Below are positions 1-5,503 of a stretch of 5,503 nucleotides of DNA, one piece after another (position 1 is the first letter of the stretch; every line of letters begins with the position of its first letter). The stretch lies in the IMG/VR virus record IMGVR_UViG_2740892229_000002. One strand, 5' to 3'. The translations under genes and the position numbers were made by a program. The notes beneath the pieces are model-generated. The model searched no databases, had not been told where the DNA came from, and was given only the letters and a program-made list of their open reading frames with translations. The stretch is from a virus. Taxonomy: Duplodnaviria > Heunggongvirae > Uroviricota > Caudoviricetes.

Positions 1-271
1 TCCGCAGAATCTGGCGGACCCGGCTTACCGCCGCCGTCGCATCATCATGCAGAACATGCGTGACGAAGAGCTGGCCATTGCTCAGGTCGAAGAGATGCAG
101 GCAGTTTCTGCCGTGCTTAAGGGCAAATACACCATGACCGGTGAAGCCTTTGATCCGGTTGAGGTGGATATGGGCCGCAGTGCGGCAAACAACATCACAC
201 AGTCCGGTGGCACGGAGTGGAGCAAGCGTGACAAGTCCACGTATGACCCGACCGACGATATCGAAGCCTAC
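1..271 (+). CDS. E: Major capsid protein E, internal fragment (block 1; in frame from 2; cut by N-run at both logical ends)
   Basis: Translation PQNLADPAYRRRRIIMQNMRDEELAIAQVEEMQAVSAVLKGKYTMTGEAFDPVEVDMGRSAANNITQSGGTEWSKRDKSTYDPTDDIEAY matches lambda gpE as I recall it; no start or stop within block. Confidence 0.9.
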
Positions 272-282
272 NNNNNNNNNNG

Positions 283-756
283 CAGAATCTGGCGGACCCG
301 GCTTACCGCCGCCGTCGCATCATCATGCAGAACATGCGAGACGAAGAGCTGGCCATTGCTCAGGTCGAAGAGATGCAGGCAGTTTCTGCTGTGCTTAAGG
401 GCAAATACACCATGACCGGTGAAGCCTTCGATCCGGTTGAGGTGGATATGGGCCGCAGTGCGGCGAACAACATCACACAGTCCGGTGGTACGGAGTGGAG
501 CAAGCGTGACAAGTCCACGTATGACCCGACCGACGATATCGAAGCCTACGCGCTGAACGCCAGCGGCGTGGTGAATATCATCGTGTTTGATCCGAAAGGA
601 TGGGCGCTGTTCCGTTCCTTCAAAGCCGTCAGGGATAAGCTGGATACCCGTCGCGGCTCTCATTCCGAGCTGGAGACAGCGGTAAAAGACCTGGGCAAAG
701 CGGTGTCTTATAAGGGAATGTATGGCGATGTGGCCATCGTCGTGTATTCCGGACAG
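283..756 (+). CDS. E: Major capsid protein E, internal fragment (block 2, 158 codons)
   Basis: Same reading frame content as block 1 then continues ...ALNASGVVNIIVFDPKGWALFRSFKAVRDKLDTRRGSHSELETAVKDLGKAVSYKGMYGDVAIVVYSGQ; bounded by N-runs. Confidence 0.9.
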
Positions 757-767
757 NNNNNNNNNNA

Positions 768-1241
768 CAGAATCTGGCGGACCCGGCTTACCGCCGCCGT
801 CGCATCATCCTGCAGAACATGCGAGACGAAGAGCTGGCCATTGCTCAGGTCGAAGAGATGCAGGCCGTTTCTGCCGTGCTTAAGGGCAAATATACCATGA
901 CCGGTGAAGCCTTCGATCCGGTTGAAGTGGATATGGGCCGCAGTGTGGCGAACAACATCACGCAGTCCGGCGGTACGGAGTGGAGCAAGCGTGACAAGTC
1001 CACGTATGACCCGACCGACGATATCGAAGCCTACGCGCTGAACGCCAGCGGTGTGGTGAATATCATCGTGTTCGATCCGAAAGGCTGGGCGCTGTTCCGT
1101 TCCTTCAAAGCCGTCAAGGAGAAGCTGGATACCCGTCGTGGCTCTCATTCCGAGCTGGAGACAGCGGTGAAAGACCTGGGTAAAGCGGTGTCTTATAAGG
1201 GAATGTATGGCGATGTGGCCATCGTCGTGTATTCCGGACAG
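768..1241 (+). CDS. E: Major capsid protein E, internal fragment (block 3, variant allele of block 2)
   Basis: Near-identical to block 2; differences ATG->CTG (M->L) at 810-812, A->V in GRSVANN, RD->KE in KAVKEKLD; bounded by N-runs. Confidence 0.9.
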
Positions 1242-1251
1242 NNNNNNNNNN

Positions 1252-1385
1252 GAAGCGGTGTCCTATAAGGGGATGTATGGCGATACGGCGATCGTCGTGT
1301 ATTCCGGACAGTACGTGGAAAACGACGTCAAAAAGAACTTCCTGCCGGACAACACGATGGTGCTGGGGAACACTCAGGCACGCGG
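1252..1385 (+). CDS. E: Major capsid protein E, internal fragment (block 4)
   Basis: EAVSYKGMYGDTAIVVYSGQYVENDVKKNFLPDNTMVLGNTQAR; overlaps end of blocks 2/3 and start of block 5 with substitutions. Confidence 0.88.
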
Positions 1386-1395
1386 NNNNNNNNNN

Positions 1396-1713
1396 AAAGC
1401 GGTGTCCTATAAGGGAATGTATGGCGATGTGGCCATCGTCGTGTATTCCGGACAGTACGTGGAAAACGGCGTCAAAAAGAACTTCCTGCCGGACAACACG
1501 ATGGTGCTGGGGAACACTCAGGCACGCGGTCTGCGTACCTATGGCTGTATTCAGGATGCGGACGCACAGCGCGAAGGCATTAACGCCTCTGCCCGTTACC
1601 CGAAAAACTGGGTGACCACCGGCGATCCGGCGCGTGAGTTCACCATGATTCAGTCAGCACCGCTGATGCTGCTGGCTGATCCTGATGAGTTCGTTTCCGT
1701 ACAACTGGCGTAA
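1396..1713 (+). CDS. E: Major capsid protein E, C-terminal fragment with native stop (TAA 1711-1713)
   Basis: KAVSYKGMYGDVAIVVYSGQYVENGVKKNFLPDNTMVLGNTQARGLRTYGCIQDADAQREGINASARYPKNWVTTGDPAREFTMIQSAPLMLLADPDEFVSVQLA*. Confidence 0.93.
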   Translation, partial: KAVSYKGMYGDVAIVVYSGQYVENGVKKNFLPDNTMVLGNTQARGLRTYGCIQDADAQREGINASARYPKNWVTTGDPAREFTMIQSAPLMLLADPDEFVSVQLA

Positions 1714-1716
1714 TCG

Positions 1717-1732
1717 TGGCCCTTCGGGGCCA
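1717..1732 (+). promoter_or_regulatory. Perfect hairpin tGGCCC-TTCG-GGGCCa (6 bp stem, UUCG-type tetraloop) in E-FI intergenic spacer, followed by TTTTCTCTCT
   Basis: Inverted repeat read directly from sequence; recurs at 2543-2560 and 2720-2737 in the other E-FI junction copies. Confidence 0.6.
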
Positions 1733-1754
1733 TTTTCTCTCTGTGGAGGAGTTC

Positions 1755-2150
1755 ATGACGAAAGATGAACTGATTGCCCGTCTCCGGTCGCTGGGTGAGC
1801 AACTGAACCGTGATGTCAGCCTGACGGGGACGAAAGAAGAACTGGCGCTCCGTGTGGCAGAGCTGGAAGAGGAGCTTGATGACACGGATGACGCAGCCGG
1901 TCAGGACACGTCTGTCAGCCCGGAAAATGCGCTGACCGGACATGAAAATGAGGTGGTATCAGCACAGACGGATACCGTGACTGATACGGCTGCTCTGGTC
2001 ACGGTTGTGGCACTGGTGACGCTGCATACCGATGCACTTCACGCCACGCGGGATGAACCTGTGGCATTTGTGCTGCCGGGAACGGCGTTTCGTGTCTCTG
2101 CCGGTGTGGCAGCCGAAATGACAGAACGTGGCCTGGCCAGAATGCAATAA
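1755..2150 (+). CDS. FI: DNA packaging / head assembly protein FI (complete, 131 aa)
   Basis: ATG 1755 preceded by GGAGGA (1745-1750); MTKDELIARLRSLGEQLNRDVSLTGTKEELALRVAELEEELDDTDDAAGQD...RVSAGVAAEMTERGLARMQ*; stop TAA 2148-2150. Confidence 0.92.
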   Translation: MTKDELIARLRSLGEQLNRDVSLTGTKEELALRVAELEEELDDTDDAAGQDTSVSPENALTGHENEVVSAQTDTVTDTAALVTVVALVTLHTDALHATRDEPVAFVLPGTAFRVSAGVAAEMTERGLARMQ

Positions 2151-2161
2151 CGGGAGGCGCT

Positions 2162-2175
2162 GTGGCTGATTTCGA
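2162..2175 (+). CDS. FII: Head-tail joining protein FII, first 4-5 codons only (GTG start), cut by N-run
   Basis: GGGAGG then GTG GCT GAT TTC GA identical to the complete FII start at 3391. Confidence 0.7.
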
Positions 2176-2186
2176 NNNNNNNNNNT

Positions 2187-2352
2187 AACACTCATGCACG
2201 CGGTCTGCGCACCTATGGCTGTATTCAGGATGCGGATGCATTGAGTGAGGGTATTAATGCGTCTCCCCGTTATCCGAAAAACTGGAAGACATCCGGCGAT
2301 CCGGCGCGTGAGTTCACCATGATTCAGTCAGCACCGCTGATGCTGCTGGCTG
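2187..2352 (+). CDS. E: Major capsid protein E, C-terminal-region fragment, divergent allele (block 6)
   Basis: NTHARGLRTYGCIQDADALSEGINASPRYPKNWKTSGDPAREFTMIQSAPLMLLA; differs from blocks 5/7 at a clustered patch. Confidence 0.85.
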
Positions 2353-2363
2353 NNNNNNNNNNC

Positions 2364-2540
2364 ACCTATGGCTGCATTCAGGATGCGGACGCACAGCGCG
2401 AAGGTATTAACGCCTCTGCCCGCTACCCGAAAAACTGGGTGACCACCGGCGATCCGGCGCGTGAGTTCACCATGATTCAGTCAGCACCGCTGATGCTGCT
2501 GGCTGATCCTGATGAGTTCGTGTCCGTTCAACTGGCGTAA
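2364..2540 (+). CDS. E: Major capsid protein E, C-terminal fragment with stop (TAA 2538-2540)
   Basis: TYGCIQDADAQREGINASARYPKNWVTTGDPAREFTMIQSAPLMLLADPDEFVSVQLA*. Confidence 0.92.
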   Translation, partial: TYGCIQDADAQREGINASARYPKNWVTTGDPAREFTMIQSAPLMLLADPDEFVSVQLA

Positions 2541-2542
2541 TC

Positions 2543-2560
2543 ATGGCCCTTCGGGGCCAT
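2543..2560 (+). promoter_or_regulatory. E-FI intergenic hairpin, second copy (atGGCCC-TTCG-GGGCCat, 7 bp stem)
   Basis: Inverted repeat read from sequence. Confidence 0.6.
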
Positions 2561-2581
2561 TTTCTCTCTGTGGAGGAGTCC

Positions 2582-2610
2582 ATGACGAAAGATGAACTGA
2601 TTGCCCGTCT
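2582..2610 (+). CDS. FI: FI N-terminal fragment (MTKDELIARL), cut by N-run
   Basis: ATG 2582 after GGAGGAG; identical N-terminus to complete FI. Confidence 0.8.
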
Positions 2611-2621
2611 NNNNNNNNNNT

Positions 2622-2717
2622 ACCGGCGATCCGGCGCGAGAGTTCACCATGATTCAGTCAGCACCGCTGATGCTGCTGGCTGACCCTGATGAGTTCGTGT
2701 CTGTACAACTGGCGTAA
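2622..2717 (+). CDS. E: Major capsid protein E, extreme C-terminal fragment with stop (TAA 2715-2717)
   Basis: TGDPAREFTMIQSAPLMLLADPDEFVSVQLA*. Confidence 0.9.
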   Translation, partial: TGDPAREFTMIQSAPLMLLADPDEFVSVQLA

Positions 2718-2719
2718 TC

Positions 2720-2737
2720 ATGGCCCTTCGGGGCCAT
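2720..2737 (+). promoter_or_regulatory. E-FI intergenic hairpin, third copy
   Basis: aTGGCCC-TTCG-GGGCCAt inverted repeat. Confidence 0.6.
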
Positions 2738-2758
2738 TGTTTCTCTGTGGATGAGTCC

Positions 2759-2863
2759 ATGACGAAAGATGAACTGATTGCCCGTCTCCGCTCGCTGGGT
2801 GAACAACTGAACCGTGATGTCAGCCTGACGGGGACGAAAGAAGAACTGGCGCTCCGTGTGGCA
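2759..2863 (+). CDS. FI: FI N-terminal fragment (35 codons), cut by N-run
   Basis: MTKDELIARLRSLGEQLNRDVSLTGTKEELALRVA; upstream Shine-Dalgarno altered to GGATGA in this copy. Confidence 0.85.
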
Positions 2864-2873
2864 NNNNNNNNNN

Positions 2874-3143
2874 TCAGGTGCTGGGTGAGCAACTGAACCG
2901 TGATGTCAGCCTGACGGGGACGAAAGAAGAACTGGCACTCCGTGTGGCAGAGCTGGAAGAGGAGCTTGATGACACGGATGACGCTGCTGGTCAGGACACA
3001 TCTGTCAGCCCGGAAAATGCGCTGACCGGACATGAAAATGAGGTTGTATCAGCGCAGCCGGATACCGTGACTGATACGGCTGATCTGGTCACGGTTGTGG
3101 CACTGGTGACGCTGCATACTGATGCACTTCACGCCACGCGGGA
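2874..3143 (+). CDS. FI: FI internal fragment
   Basis: LGEQLNRDVSLTGTKEELALRVAELEEELDDTDDAAGQDTSVSPENALTGHENEVVSAQPDTVTDTADLVTVVALVTLHTDALHATR; T->P and A->D relative to the complete copy. Confidence 0.88.
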
Positions 3144-3154
3144 NNNNNNNNNNG

Positions 3155-3214
3155 GCTGTGGCATTTGTGCTGCCGGGAACGGCGTTTCGTGTCTCTGCCG
3201 GTGTGGCAGCCTAA
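3155..3214 (+). CDS. FI: FI C-terminal fragment carrying premature stop (TAA 3212-3214 where other copies have GAA); original stop would be 3245-3247
   Basis: AVAFVLPGTAFRVSAGVAA* versus ...AGVAAEMTERGLARMQ* in the copies at 2040-2150 and 3284-3379. Confidence 0.75.
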   Translation, partial: AVAFVLPGTAFRVSAGVAA

Positions 3215-3258
3215 ATGACAGAACGTGGCCTGGCCAGAATGCAATAACGGGAGGCGCT

Positions 3259-3272
3259 GTGGCTGATTTCGA
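3259..3272 (+). CDS. FII: FII start fragment (GTG start), cut by N-run
   Basis: GGGAGGCGCT GTG GCT GAT TTC GA. Confidence 0.7.
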
Positions 3273-3283
3273 NNNNNNNNNNT

Positions 3284-3379
3284 GAGGCTGTGGCATTTGT
3301 GCTGCCGGGAACGGCGTTCCGTGTCTCTGCCGGTGTGGCAGCTGAAATGACAGAGCGCGGCCTGGCCAGAATGCAATAA
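3284..3379 (+). CDS. FI: FI C-terminal fragment with native stop (TAA 3377-3379)
   Basis: EAVAFVLPGTAFRVSAGVAAEMTERGLARMQ*. Confidence 0.88.
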   Translation, partial: EAVAFVLPGTAFRVSAGVAAEMTERGLARMQ

Positions 3380-3390
3380 CGGGAGGCGCT

Positions 3391-3744
3391 GTGGCTGATT
3401 TCGATAACCTGTTCGATGCTGCCATTGCCTGCGCCGATGAAACGATACGCGGGTACATGGGAACGTCAGCCACCATGACATCCGGTGAGCAGTCCGGCGC
3501 AGTAATACGTGGTGTTTTTGATGACCCTGAAAATATCAGCTATGCCGGACAGGGCGTACGCGTTGAAGGCTCCAGCCCGTCCCTGTTTGTCCGGACTGAT
3601 GATGTGCGGCAGCTGCGGCGTGGAGACACGCTGACCATCGGTGAGGAAAACTTCTGGATAGACCGGATTTCGCCGGATGATGGCGGAAGCTGTCATCTCT
3701 GGCTTGGGCGGGGCGTACCGCCTGCCGTTAACCGTCGCCGCTGA
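3391..3744 (+). CDS. FII: Head-tail joining protein FII (complete, 117 aa, GTG start)
   Basis: GGGAGG SD at 3381-3386, GTG 3391; MADFDNLFDAAIACADETIRGYMGTSATMTSGEQSGAVIRGVFDDPENISYAGQGVRVEGSSPSLFVRTDDVRQLRRGDTLTIGEENFWIDRISPDDGGSCHLWLGRGVPPAVNRRR*; stop TGA 3742-3744. Confidence 0.93.
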   Translation: MADFDNLFDAAIACADETIRGYMGTSATMTSGEQSGAVIRGVFDDPENISYAGQGVRVEGSSPSLFVRTDDVRQLRRGDTLTIGEENFWIDRISPDDGGSCHLWLGRGVPPAVNRRR

Positions 3745-3755
3745 AAGGGGGATGT

Positions 3756-3935
3756 ATGGCCATAAAAGGTCTTGAGCAGGCCGTTGAAAACCTCAGCCGT
3801 ATCAGCAAAACGGCGGTGCCCGGTGCGTCAGCAATGGCCATTAACCGCGTTGCTTCATCCGCGATATCGCAGTCTGCGTCACAGGTTGCCCGTGAGACAA
3901 AGGTACGCCGGAAACTGGTAAAGGAAAGGGCCAGG
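3756..3935 (+). CDS. Z: Tail completion protein Z, N-terminal fragment (60 codons)
   Basis: AGGGGG SD then ATG 3756; MAIKGLEQAVENLSRISKTAVPGASAMAINRVASSAISQSASQVARETKVRRKLVKERAR. Confidence 0.9.
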
Positions 3936-3947
3936 NNNNNNNNNNGA

Positions 3948-4265
3948 ACGGCGGTGCCCGGTGCCGCCGCAATGGCCATTAACCGCGTTGCTTCATCCGC
4001 GATATCGCAGTCGGCGTCACAGGTTGCCCGTGAGACAAAGGTACGCCGGAAACTGGTAAAGGAAAGGGCCAGGCTGAAAAGGGCCACGGTTAAAAATCCG
4101 CAGGCCAGAATCAAGGTTAACCGGGGGGATTTGCCCGTAATCAAGCTGGGGAATGCGCGGGTTGTCCTGTCCCGACGCAGGCGTCGTAAAAAGGGGCAGC
4201 GTTCATCCCTGAAAGGTGGCGGCAGCGTGCTTGTGGTGGGAAACCGTCGTATTCCCGGCGCGTTT
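3948..4265 (+). CDS. Z: Tail completion protein Z, internal fragment
   Basis: TAVPGAAAMAINRVASSAISQSASQVARETKVRRKLVKERARLKRATVKNPQARIKVNRGDLPVIKLGNARVVLSRRRRRKKGQRSSLKGGGSVLVVGNRRIPGAF. Confidence 0.9.
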
Positions 4266-4277
4266 ANNNNNNNNNNC

Positions 4278-4658
4278 AAAAATCCGCAGGCCAGAATCAG
4301 GGTTAACCGGGGGGATTTGCCCGTAATAAAGCTGGGTAACGCGCGGATTGTCCTGTCCCGACGCAGGCGTCGTAAAAAGGGGCAGCGTTCAGCCCTGAAA
4401 GGTGGCGGCAGCGTGCTTGTGGTGGGAAACCGTCGTATTCCCGGCGCGTTTATTCAGCAACTGAAAAATGGCCGCTGGCATGTCATGCAGCGTGTGGCCG
4501 GGAAAAACCGTTACCCCATTGATGTGGTGAAAATCCCGATGGCGGTGCCGCTGACCACGGCGTTTAAACAGAATATTGAGCGGATACGGCGTGAGCGTCT
4601 TCCGAAAGAGCTGGGCTATGCGCTGCAGCATCAACTGAGGATGGTAATAAAGCGATGA
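4278..4658 (+). CDS. Z: Tail completion protein Z, C-terminal fragment with stop (TGA 4656-4658)
   Basis: [126 protein letters not shown]. Confidence 0.9.
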   Translation, partial: KNPQARIRVNRGDLPVIKLGNARIVLSRRRRRKKGQRSALKGGGSVLVVGNRRIPGAFIQQLKNGRWHVMQRVAGKNRYPIDVVKIPMAVPLTTAFKQNIERIRRERLPKELGYALQHQLRMVIKR

Positions 4659-4700
4659 AACATACTGAACTCCGAGCAGCCGTACTGGATGCACTGGAGA
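4655..4700 (+). CDS. U: Tail terminator protein U, N-terminal fragment ([15 protein letters not shown]), cut by N-run
   Basis: ATG 4655 overlaps Z stop (ATGA); identical to start of complete U. Confidence 0.85.
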
Positions 4701-4711
4701 NNNNNNNNNNT

Positions 4712-4816
4712 ACCACGGCGTTTAAACAGAATATTGAACGGATACGGCGTGAACGTCTTCCGAAAGAGCTGGGCTATGCGCTGCAGCATCAACTGAGAAT
4801 GGTAATAAAGCGATGA
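4712..4816 (+). CDS. Z: Tail completion protein Z, extreme C-terminal fragment with stop (TGA 4814-4816)
   Basis: [34 protein letters not shown]. Confidence 0.9.
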   Translation, partial: TTAFKQNIERIRRERLPKELGYALQHQLRMVIKR

Positions 4817-5208
4817 AACATACTGAACTCCGTGCAGCCGTACTGGATGCACTGGAGAAGCATGACACCGGGGCGACGTTTTTTGATGGTCGCCCCGCTG
4901 TTTTTGATGAGGCGGATTTTCCGGCAGTTGCCGTTTATCTCACCGGCGCTGAATACACGGGCGAAGAGCTGGACAGCGATACCTGGCAGGCGGAGCTGCA
5001 TATTGAAGTTTTCCTGCCTGCTCAGGTGCCGGATTCAGAGCTGGATGCGTGGATGGAGTCCCGGATTTATCCGGTGATGAGCGATATCCCGGCACTGTCA
5101 GATTTGATCACCAGTATGGTGGCCAGTGGCTATGACTACCGGCGCGACGATGATGCGGGCCTGTGGAGTTCTGCCGATCTGACTTATGTCATTACCTATG
5201 AAATGTGA
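4813..5208 (+). CDS. U: Tail terminator protein U (complete, 131 aa)
   Basis: ATG 4813 overlapping Z stop; [131 protein letters not shown]; stop TGA 5206-5208. Confidence 0.93.
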
Positions 5209-5215
5209 GGACGAT

Positions 5216-5503
5216 ATGCCTGTACCAAATCCAGCAATACCGGTGAAAGGTGCCGGAACCACCCTGTGGGTTTATAACGGGAGCGGCGACCCTTATGCGA
5301 ACCCGCTTTCAGACGTTGACTGGTCGCGTCTGGCTAAAGTTAAAGACCTGACGCCCGGCGAACTGACCGCTGAGTCCTATGACGACAGTTATCTCGATGA
5401 TGAAGATGCGGACTGGACCGCGACCGGGCAGGGGCAGAAATCCGCCGGAGATACCAGCTTCACGCTGGCGTGGATGCCCGGAGAGCAGGGGCAGCAGGCG
5501 CTG
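5216..5503 (+). CDS. V: Major tail protein V, N-terminal 96 codons (runs off window end)
   Basis: GAGGA SD then ATG 5216; [96 protein letters not shown]. Confidence 0.9.

Follow-up and report, generated by a model that had tools for sequence, protein, structure and literature searches.

A 5.5-kb public record of lambda-like head-tail genes is best read as one short-read de Bruijn scaffold, k = 61, that tiles at least three phage copies

The stretch of DNA analysed here (the window, 5,503 nt) is identical in sequence to the whole of the NCBI WGS record CCPP01000120.1 (assembly GCA_000752895.1, 5,503 bp), and is therefore one output record of a draft assembly. Annotated references and ungapped collinear mapping place in it the head-tail module genes E, FI, FII, Z, U and V in the lambda order. 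Pfam matches cover E, FI, FII, U and V (PF03864, PF14000, PF05354, PF06141 and PF16461), and Z was assigned from the reference annotation together with PF06763 on homologous loci. Only three genes are intact within a single one of the blocks described below, all on the + strand: FI (1755..2150, 131 aa, in B5; Packaging_FI, E = 2.4e-51), FII (3391..3744, 117 aa, in B11; Phage_attach, E = 2.1e-19) and U (4813..5208, 131 aa, in B14; Phage_tail_U, E = 8.2e-62). E, Z and V are present as fragments, the last of these, the major tail gene, as a 5' part of 96 codons cut by the scaffold end (5216..5503, + strand; Phage_TTP_12, E = 3e-39). The exact FI protein is very common in public assemblies, with 11,136 blocks of the searched collection containing it; pairs from the same assembly that share it are 99.7-100% identical, and so are not diverged copies.

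Thirteen runs of N, all 13 exactly 10 long, interrupt the window (272..281, 757..766, 1242..1251, 1386..1395, 2176..2185, 2353..2362, 2611..2620, 2864..2873, 3144..3153, 3273..3282, 3936..3945, 4267..4276 and 4701..4710) and divide it into 14 blocks of 119-793 nt, B1 to B14. For comparison we used the loci of two lambda-like phages, 1H12 (L001) and PhiR30_1 (L002), whose locus coordinates are given below as "ref". All 14 blocks align to ref 1501-4315 on the + strand and without gaps, with the same genes in the same order and 95-100% nucleotide identity per block; the window shows no biological difference from the lambdoid head-tail module. The 5,373 non-N bases thus lie on just 2,815 reference bases, a 1.9-fold redundancy, with a depth of block coverage along the module of 1-4. 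The block order is collinear and nearly sorted by ref start, B10 (start 2580) preceding B11 (start 2577). An initial annotation, made from the letters and their open reading frames, had described a redundant tiling of one lambdoid head-tail module by 14 N10-separated blocks, and its proposed check, alignment of the blocks to lambda-like references and to each other, bears this out as ungapped, collinear and redundant. Its coverage counts also hold: the middle of E is covered three times (ref 1504-1771), the E C-terminus four times (ref 2140-2201), the end of FI three times (ref 2580-2698) and the Z/U junction twice (ref 3523-3670). The possibility that the N-runs mask real sequence was rejected, as the blocks on either side share tens to hundreds of bases and do not abut across a 10-nt gap. 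A search with a pattern spanning an N-junction returned 0 matches in viral, genome and metagenome contigs.

The first four blocks are all on the + strand and lie within the major capsid gene E. B1 (1..271; ref 1501-1771) is the scaffold's first node; its base 61 (ref 1561) is the first difference from B2 and B3, it ends 60 nt past variant 1711, and it has one mismatch to the natural haplotype L072. B2 (282..756) and B3 (767..1241) both cover ref 1504-1978. The former, probably a merged path, starts on the polymorphic base 1504 and ends 60 nt past 1918, and is L022-like on its left and L072-like on its right, with the switch falling in an 80-nt run common to both blocks. The latter is a third allele, with 17 differences from B2 and 12 from B1, and is 99.2% identical to the top complete E. 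coli genome. B4 (1252..1385; ref 1919-2052) starts on variant 1919, ends 60 nt past 1992 and is 100% identical to both reference loci.

The next six blocks, likewise on the + strand, run from the 3' part of E to the start of FII. B5 (1396..2175; ref 1919-2698), probably a merged path, carries the E 3' end, the whole of FI and the first 14 nt of FII; it has a 98-nt run identical with B7, its top complete E. coli genome is 98.7% identical, and two panel haplotypes suffice to explain it. B6 (2186..2352; ref 2035-2201), from the E 3' part, is the most divergent allele, with about 90% identity to other blocks, and ends 60 nt past 2141. B7 (2363..2610; ref 2059-2306), with the E 3' end, the spacer and the FI 5' end, starts on variant 2059, whereas B8 (2621..2863; ref 2140-2382), with the E 3' end and the FI 5' part, ends 60 nt past 2322 and has 0 mismatches to L072-type natural haplotypes. 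B9 (2874..3143; ref 2307-2576), internal to FI, starts on variant 2307, ends 60 nt past 2516 and is 100% identical to PhiR30_1. B10 (3154..3272; ref 2580-2698), with the FI 3' end and the FII start, starts on variant 2580 and ends 60 nt past 2638, its last difference from B5.

The remaining + strand blocks extend into the tail genes. B11 (3283..3935; ref 2577-3229) holds the FI 3' end, the whole of FII and the first 180 nt of Z, and ends 60 nt past 3169. B12 (3946..4266; ref 3102-3422), internal to Z, runs from variant 3102 to 60 nt past 3362, and B13 (4277..4700; ref 3247-3670), with the Z 3' part and the U 5' end, runs from variant 3247 to 60 nt past 3610. B14 (4711..5503; ref 3523-4315), the scaffold's last node, holds the Z 3' end, the whole of U and the first 288 nt of V; it starts on variant 3523, and its end, the right end of the window at ref 4315, lies 60 nt past 4255, a site polymorphic in natural phages.

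Open reading frames that cross the N-runs are artificial, as the initial annotation had warned. One example is a 300-aa "Z" (3756..4658, + strand), which opens with the Z start codon of B11 and continues through two N-runs into B12 and B13; its translation contains XXXX twice and a repeated Z peptide, whereas the real Z is 192 aa long. This frame is nonetheless recorded as a called gene on CCPP01000120.1, along with several fragment ORFs. The chimeric proteins of the window have no exact match in a collection of 15 billion proteins.

The positions of the block boundaries follow the nodes of a de Bruijn graph with k = 61. Of the 13 internal starts, 12 fall on a site polymorphic among the blocks, as against a background of 5.9% (P about 2e-14), and because the boundaries are tied in this way to polymorphic sites the tiling is not due to chance. 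Likewise, 12 of 13 ends lie exactly 60 nt past a site at which that block differs from another; when offsets from 0 to 120 were scanned, 12 ends were recovered at offset 60 and at most 4 at any other. The exceptions match other types of node boundary: B7 ends directly before variant 2307, where B9 starts, as expected of a divergence-type node end; B11 starts at 2577, i.e. 2516+61, as a post-convergence node directly after B9; and B1 alone is printed with a 60-nt prefix, the later blocks either differing from base 1 or starting 61 nt past a convergence. Moreover, the terminal identical run is exactly 60 nt long in nine block pairs, where 0.25 would be expected, and 21 of the 23 overlapping pairs share no 61-mer. 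The remaining two pairs, B2-B3 (80 nt) and B5-B7 (98 nt), share more than 60 identical bases; hence we dropped the view of the blocks as simple unitigs, and these runs fit long blocks that are paths merged by way of nodes in common.

We then considered the differences between the blocks themselves. As the initial annotation had noted, overlapping blocks differ by point substitutions: they are 88.8-99.1% identical, with substitutions only and no gaps. Of the 127 coding differences, 90 affect the third codon position, and 86 are synonymous against 41 non-synonymous. B4, B8 and B9 correspond exactly to natural haplotypes and B1, B6 and B10 do so within 1 nt, the backgrounds of these haplotypes being different, and a panel of 96 natural loci contains nearly all 31-mers of the window. 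A stretch of 60 nt from the interior of B6 has an exact match in 67 IMG/VR contigs, and a stretch of B5 matches Escherichia albertii NBRC 107761 and 26 IMG/VR contigs; none of the contigs matching the B6 or B5 stretches has N-runs of the window's kind. A rare stretch of B3 had 0 matches in metagenomes. Judged by these patterns of substitution and matching, the differences between blocks are genuine alleles, not errors. At least three distinct sequences occur together at ref 1504-1771, 2202-2382 and 2580-2698, a multiplicity that requires at least three co-existing haplotypes.

Taking these observations together, we propose, with a probability of roughly 0.93, that the window is a single complete short-read de Bruijn scaffold, built with k = 61, which tiles at least three lambda-like copies, and that its apparent gene repeats are artefactual. 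The initial annotation's suggestion that short contigs or unitigs of lambdoid repeats had been linked by spacers of fixed length is supported by both the k = 61 node geometry and the genuine alleles. Under this proposal, the sequenced DNA would have contained at least three copies of the E-FI-FII-Z-U-V module, about 1-11% apart and differing by substitutions only. In the graph, the copies would split at each variant and rejoin where at least 61 bases are identical, giving rise to many short allele-specific nodes, and the single-copy coverage of each such node would lead the scaffolder to treat it as unique. Read pairs would presumably then link the nodes and assign them positions that overlap; where no single path through the graph joined them, they would be laid out by estimated position with a minimum spacer of 10 N.

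The assembler was most likely Velvet or a derivative, an attribution that rests on two conventions of that program. Velvet reportedly stores each node minus its first k-1 bases and prints gaps below 10 bp as 10 N; a literature search that did not cover Velvet's own 2008 paper found nothing on the node convention or the 10-N rule. The paper on Pebble describes how nodes that count as unique by their coverage and neighbour each other by read pairs, but have no path between them, are merged with a buffer of N's, the length of which equals the distance estimate (Zerbino et al. 2009, PMC2793427). The window likewise has N buffers between nodes, with prefix-less nodes and one prefix on the first, but its buffers are a uniform 10 N rather than a distance estimate. 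A related situation arises when heterozygous or repeat-rich genomes are assembled and haplotigs or bubble arms stay uncollapsed; there, as in the window, all alleles are set end to end, the length is inflated, and false duplications and chimeric ORFs result. Haplotigs, however, are separate contigs, while the alleles of the window are interleaved in one 5.5-kb scaffold and, unlike heterozygous haplotigs, most likely represent paralogous prophage copies of a haploid bacterium.

As to the origin of the copies, we think that one isolate probably carried them as co-resident prophages. This view is favoured because the record, with its GCA accession, is part of a WGS genome assembly and because multiple copies are the norm in E. 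coli. Of 5,426 complete E. coli genomes, 4,091 contain the module, at a median of 2 places each and at 10 at most. E. coli F404 has two co-resident copies with 96.7% identity and no indels, and their k = 61 graph breaks into 50 nodes. The same artefact might also have arisen from a mixed or contaminated culture of at least two E. coli strains, each carrying a lambdoid prophage of its own, a source that we regard as rather unlikely yet deserving serious consideration. Both origins had been raised by the initial annotation. A mixture would account for the match of the blocks to natural haplotypes of different backgrounds; furthermore, three or more copies of the E-FI part are present in only a minority of genomes (3,224 of the complete genomes have this part, at 4,609 places, with a median of 1 and a maximum of 5), and the long blocks are not accounted for by any one complete genome. 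Against it, apart from the nature of the record, genomes with 3-5 copies do exist and are among the best matches, and a scaffolder that picks uniform single-copy nodes would better suit copies of equal dosage.

The long blocks also bear on a further, unlikely reading, in which an isolate with at least three co-resident prophages carried E-FI-FII alleles that were new mosaics produced by recombination or gene conversion among those prophages, and not chimeric graph paths. B3, B5, B11 and B14 are absent in exact form from all 5,426 complete E. coli genomes, with best identities of 98.7-99.5%, and B3, B5 and B11 each read as two known haplotypes joined. Their absence could reflect either chimeric paths or unsampled alleles.

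The joining of the blocks might alternatively have been a later step, in which a tool or database pipeline arranged separate contigs along a lambda-like reference and linked them by 10-N spacers. The blocks indeed share one strand, and their ref starts rise in almost perfect order, but the placement of B10 before B11 is not a strict sort, and separate contigs would keep k-1 context at both ends, whereas here the 60-nt prefix is on the first block only; this suggests that the joining took place within the graph structure of the assembler itself, and we consider a later joining very improbable. That E, FI and Z underwent real nested tandem partial duplication in a phage or prophage has nothing beyond the raw block order in its favour, and we give it practically no weight: every junction is an N-run without junction sequence, and the boundaries obey k-mer geometry rather than the logic of recombination. 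Such duplications would also disrupt the capsid, FI and Z genes. Further, about 97-98% of the window collapses on one 2.8-kb place in each of the 15 phage records listed, a single place accounts for at least 80% of it in 80 of the 122 matching records, the 2,815-bp reference module is uninterrupted in 40 of the 40 E. coli records listed, and reference annotations show each gene once. Sequencing errors that produced false bubbles in a single-copy region have nothing in their favour and are equally negligible as an explanation, given the third-codon-position and synonymous bias, the exact allele matches in natural phages and a divergence of up to 11% between blocks.

The apparent repeats represent no new biology, and the finding matters as quality control only. 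In this public WGS record, ordinary lambdoid head-tail genes amounting to about 2.8 kb take up 5.5 kb, with E, FI and Z seemingly repeated; the record has already misled gene callers, as seen in the chimeric products from CCPP01000120.1, and would mislead scans for duplications, repeats, novel ORFs or gene dosage. The initial annotation's caution over gene dosage, tandem duplication and synteny was hence well placed, the repeats being an assembly artefact, and copy number, phasing and N-crossing ORFs are all unreliable in the window. The boundary test applied here, namely starts on variant bases and ends at a variant plus k-1, offers a quick means of spotting such scaffolds from sequence alone and also recovers k.

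The 130 N in the window fall into 13 runs of exactly 10, as had been counted in the initial annotation, and they separate 14 blocks (B1-B14) of 119-793 nt with a uniform GC content of 0.55-0.60. In a megablast search, about 97-98% of the 5,503 nt mapped, as 13 joined pieces, within one stretch of 2.8 kb for every one of the 15 listed lambda-like phages, and at least 80% of the window fell in one place in 80 of the 122 matching phage records. Using phage 1H12 (NC_049947, locus L001) and PhiR30_1 (PV340558, locus L002) as annotated references, all 14 blocks could be aligned to both, without gaps and on the + strand, within locus coordinates 1501-4315 (reference coordinates hereafter), a region that extends from the middle of the major capsid gene E through FI, FII, Z and U to the first 288 nt of V. 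From B1 to B14 the blocks start at 1501, 1504, 1504, 1919, 1919, 2035, 2059, 2140, 2307, 2580, 2577, 3102, 3247 and 3523, an order nearly perfectly sorted by reference start, and they cover the reference to a depth of 1-4. The alignment of the blocks to lambda-like references and to each other, which the initial annotation had proposed as a check, revealed them to be collinear, gap-free and overlapping. It agrees with that annotation both in the repeated coverage (threefold for the middle of E and the end of FI, fourfold for the E C-terminus and twofold for the Z/U junction) and in the point substitutions between overlapping blocks, which show pairwise identities of 88.8-99.1% and differ by substitutions only.

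Pfam searches recovered the E fragment (PF03864), FI (PF14000), FII (PF05354), U (PF06141) and the V fragment (PF16461), and the identity of gene Z was taken from the annotation of the two references; the genes of the window are ordinary lambda head-tail genes. In one natural locus, from E. coli CREC-2 (CP200002.1; L097), a lambdoid FI-tail module retains no more of E than its 3' part. Immediately upstream of this module, at 1008-5014, are genes for SSB, a second Phage_cap_E capsid protein, HDPD and AlpA, followed by an oppositely oriented pair of genes for HEPN_RiboL-PSP and GmrSD_N, an arrangement suggestive of a satellite or defence island inserted in the head region of the prophage.

The block boundaries bear the signature of a de Bruijn graph with k = 61. 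Of the 13 internal block starts, 12 coincide exactly with a site polymorphic among the blocks, such sites constituting 5.9% of those covered at least twice (binomial P ~2e-14). Likewise, 12 of the 13 internal ends lie exactly 60 nt past a site where the block differs from another; a scan of offsets 0-120 recovered 12 at offset 60 and at most four at every other offset. An identical terminal run of exactly 60 nt is seen in nine block pairs, versus 0.25 expected from random placement of as many mismatches. The k-1 context is present on the 3' side only in the later blocks, and on the 5' side too in the first block only. In Velvet, the probable assembler, a node is kept as the final bases of its k-mers, and the k-1 prefix is put back only where an output sequence begins. 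The boundary exceptions are other legal kinds of node boundary: 1) B1 first differs from B2 and B3 at its base 61 (1561), indicating a node printed with a 60-nt prefix; 2) B7 ends at 2306, one base before the variant at 2307 where B9 starts, and this is a divergence-type boundary; 3) B11 starts at 2577 (2516+61), directly after the end of B9 at 2576, which is the first new base past the convergence of two paths differing at 2516; 4) the right end of the window, at 4315, lies 60 nt past 4255, where natural phages are polymorphic.

Under the strict graph rule no 61-mer occurs in two nodes, and none is common to both blocks in 21 of the 23 overlapping pairs. The exceptions, B2-B3 with an identical run of 80 nt and B5-B7 with one of 98 nt, suggest that the longer blocks represent paths that had earlier been merged via a shared node. 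This is supported by a copying-model analysis, in which two haplotypes of the panel suffice to explain each long block, leaving 0-4 mismatches; the background changes at 1711/1712 in B2 as well as in B3, within their common run (1709-1788). Phasing across shared stretches is untrustworthy.

From the node geometry the window was expected to be a single complete scaffold, and its identity with the whole of NCBI CCPP01000120.1 (range 1-5503; assembly GCA_000752895.1), part of an isolate-type WGS genome assembly, bears this out. A pattern across an N-spanning junction gave 0 matches in the viral, genome and metagenome contig collections. Velvet writes gaps under 10 bp as 10 N. According to the Pebble paper, which sets out the step that such a scaffold requires, it classes nodes as unique by their coverage and estimates the distances between them from read pairs (PMC2793427). 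Allele-specific nodes of diverged repeat copies would have single-copy coverage and hence look unique, and through stretches common to the copies read pairs would connect nodes that belong to different copies and give them overlapping positions. Gap estimates would then be zero or negative, each gap probably becoming 10 N, and the nodes would be laid out by estimated position, a layout expected to give the near-sorted block order. The arrangement of the window belongs to a known kind of assembly artefact, in which a scaffolder sets alternative alleles that were not collapsed in a line; the tiling is not a biological feature. The earlier proposal of short contigs or unitigs from lambdoid repeats joined by fixed-length spacers is supported, and sharpened by the k value, node geometry and accession.

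Three mutually distinct sequences are seen at 1504-1771 (B1, B2 and B3), and also at 2202-2382 and 2580-2698, implying at least three E-FI haplotypes and at least two Z-U haplotypes in the sequenced DNA. We favor several co-resident prophages of one isolate as their origin, with a probability of roughly 0.7. The 2,815-bp module is found in 4,091 of 5,426 complete E. coli genomes, where it occupies a median of two places and at most ten. In E. coli F404 (NZ_OY754364.1) it is present in two prophages about 1 Mb apart, whose copies, at 96.7% identity, differ over 3,215 nt by 105 substitutions but by no indel; a k = 61 graph of these two copies alone falls into 50 nodes, which measure 4-359 nt as printed. 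This pair and its graph indicate that co-resident prophages of one isolate are sufficient. At the opposite extreme, two module copies that are 99.7-100% identical over 2.8 kb occur in each of three assemblies, GCA_015687505 (L098/L099), GCA_026135245 (L102/L103) and GCA_048571295 (L105/L106); such copies would collapse, rather than bubble, in a short-read graph.

A mixed culture is a less probable source of the haplotypes. It is favored by the E-FI copy number of single complete E. coli genomes (median 1, maximum 5, with three or more in a minority), and by the long blocks B3 (window 767-1241), B5 (1396-2175), B11 (3283-3935) and B14 (4711-5503), none of which has a 100% match among the 5,426 complete E. 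coli genomes, where identity reaches 99.2, 98.7, 98.9 and 99.5%, respectively. These blocks may be real new mosaics or chimeric graph paths. The isolate-type assembly argues against a mixture and for co-resident prophages. A later reference-guided concatenation of separate contigs is unlikely, as separately written contigs would retain both flanks. Real tandem duplication was rejected, since none of the junctions has been sequenced, the boundaries obey the arithmetic of k-mers, and the arrangement is absent from every contiguous relative examined.

The spacers also bear on gene prediction. The Z start codon in B11 opens an artefactual 300-aa ORF (3756-4658, + strand) that reads through two 10-N runs; its product contains two XXXX stretches and a repeated Z peptide, the real Z being 192 aa, in agreement with the initial view that ORFs crossing N-runs are artificial. 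That the frame is kept across both runs is pure coincidence of block offsets. By exact look-up the product matched a single record, CCPP01000120.1. This ORF is a called gene on that record, where about 10 further fragment or chimeric ORFs are also called (137, 175, 158, 168, 99 and 135 aa, and others).

The differences between the blocks are real alleles. Third codon positions account for 90 of the 127 coding differences from the reference, 86 of the 127 are synonymous versus 41 that are not, and there are 84 transitions versus 48 transversions. B4, B8 and B9 exactly match natural haplotypes, and B1, B6 and B10 are natural haplotypes within one base. The backgrounds of the blocks differ: they are like that of PhiR30_1 for B4, B7, B9, B13 and B14, and like those of the natural loci L072 for B1, B8, B10 and B12, L003 for B6, and L078 for B5. 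B6 is the most divergent allele, and an internal 60-nt stretch of it is found exactly in 67 IMG/VR contigs. A panel of 96 natural loci contains nearly all 31-mers of the window; those absent from all 96 are confined to window 3182-3242 in B10 (3154-3272), which has a single private T at reference 2638, 1116-1211 in B3, for which JGI metagenome contigs gave no exact match, and 1665-1710 in B5. Sequencing error as the source of the differences is excluded by the third-position and synonymous bias, the natural haplotype matches and the panel 31-mers. A 68-nt stretch of B5 at the end of E, missing from a first panel of E. coli-type loci, is found exactly at 3014-3081 of L070, a draft contig of Escherichia albertii NBRC 107761 (NZ_BBMY01000131.1) that is also the contig of IMG/VR locus L095. 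This allele of the lambdoid capsid gene is therefore not confined to one Escherichia species.
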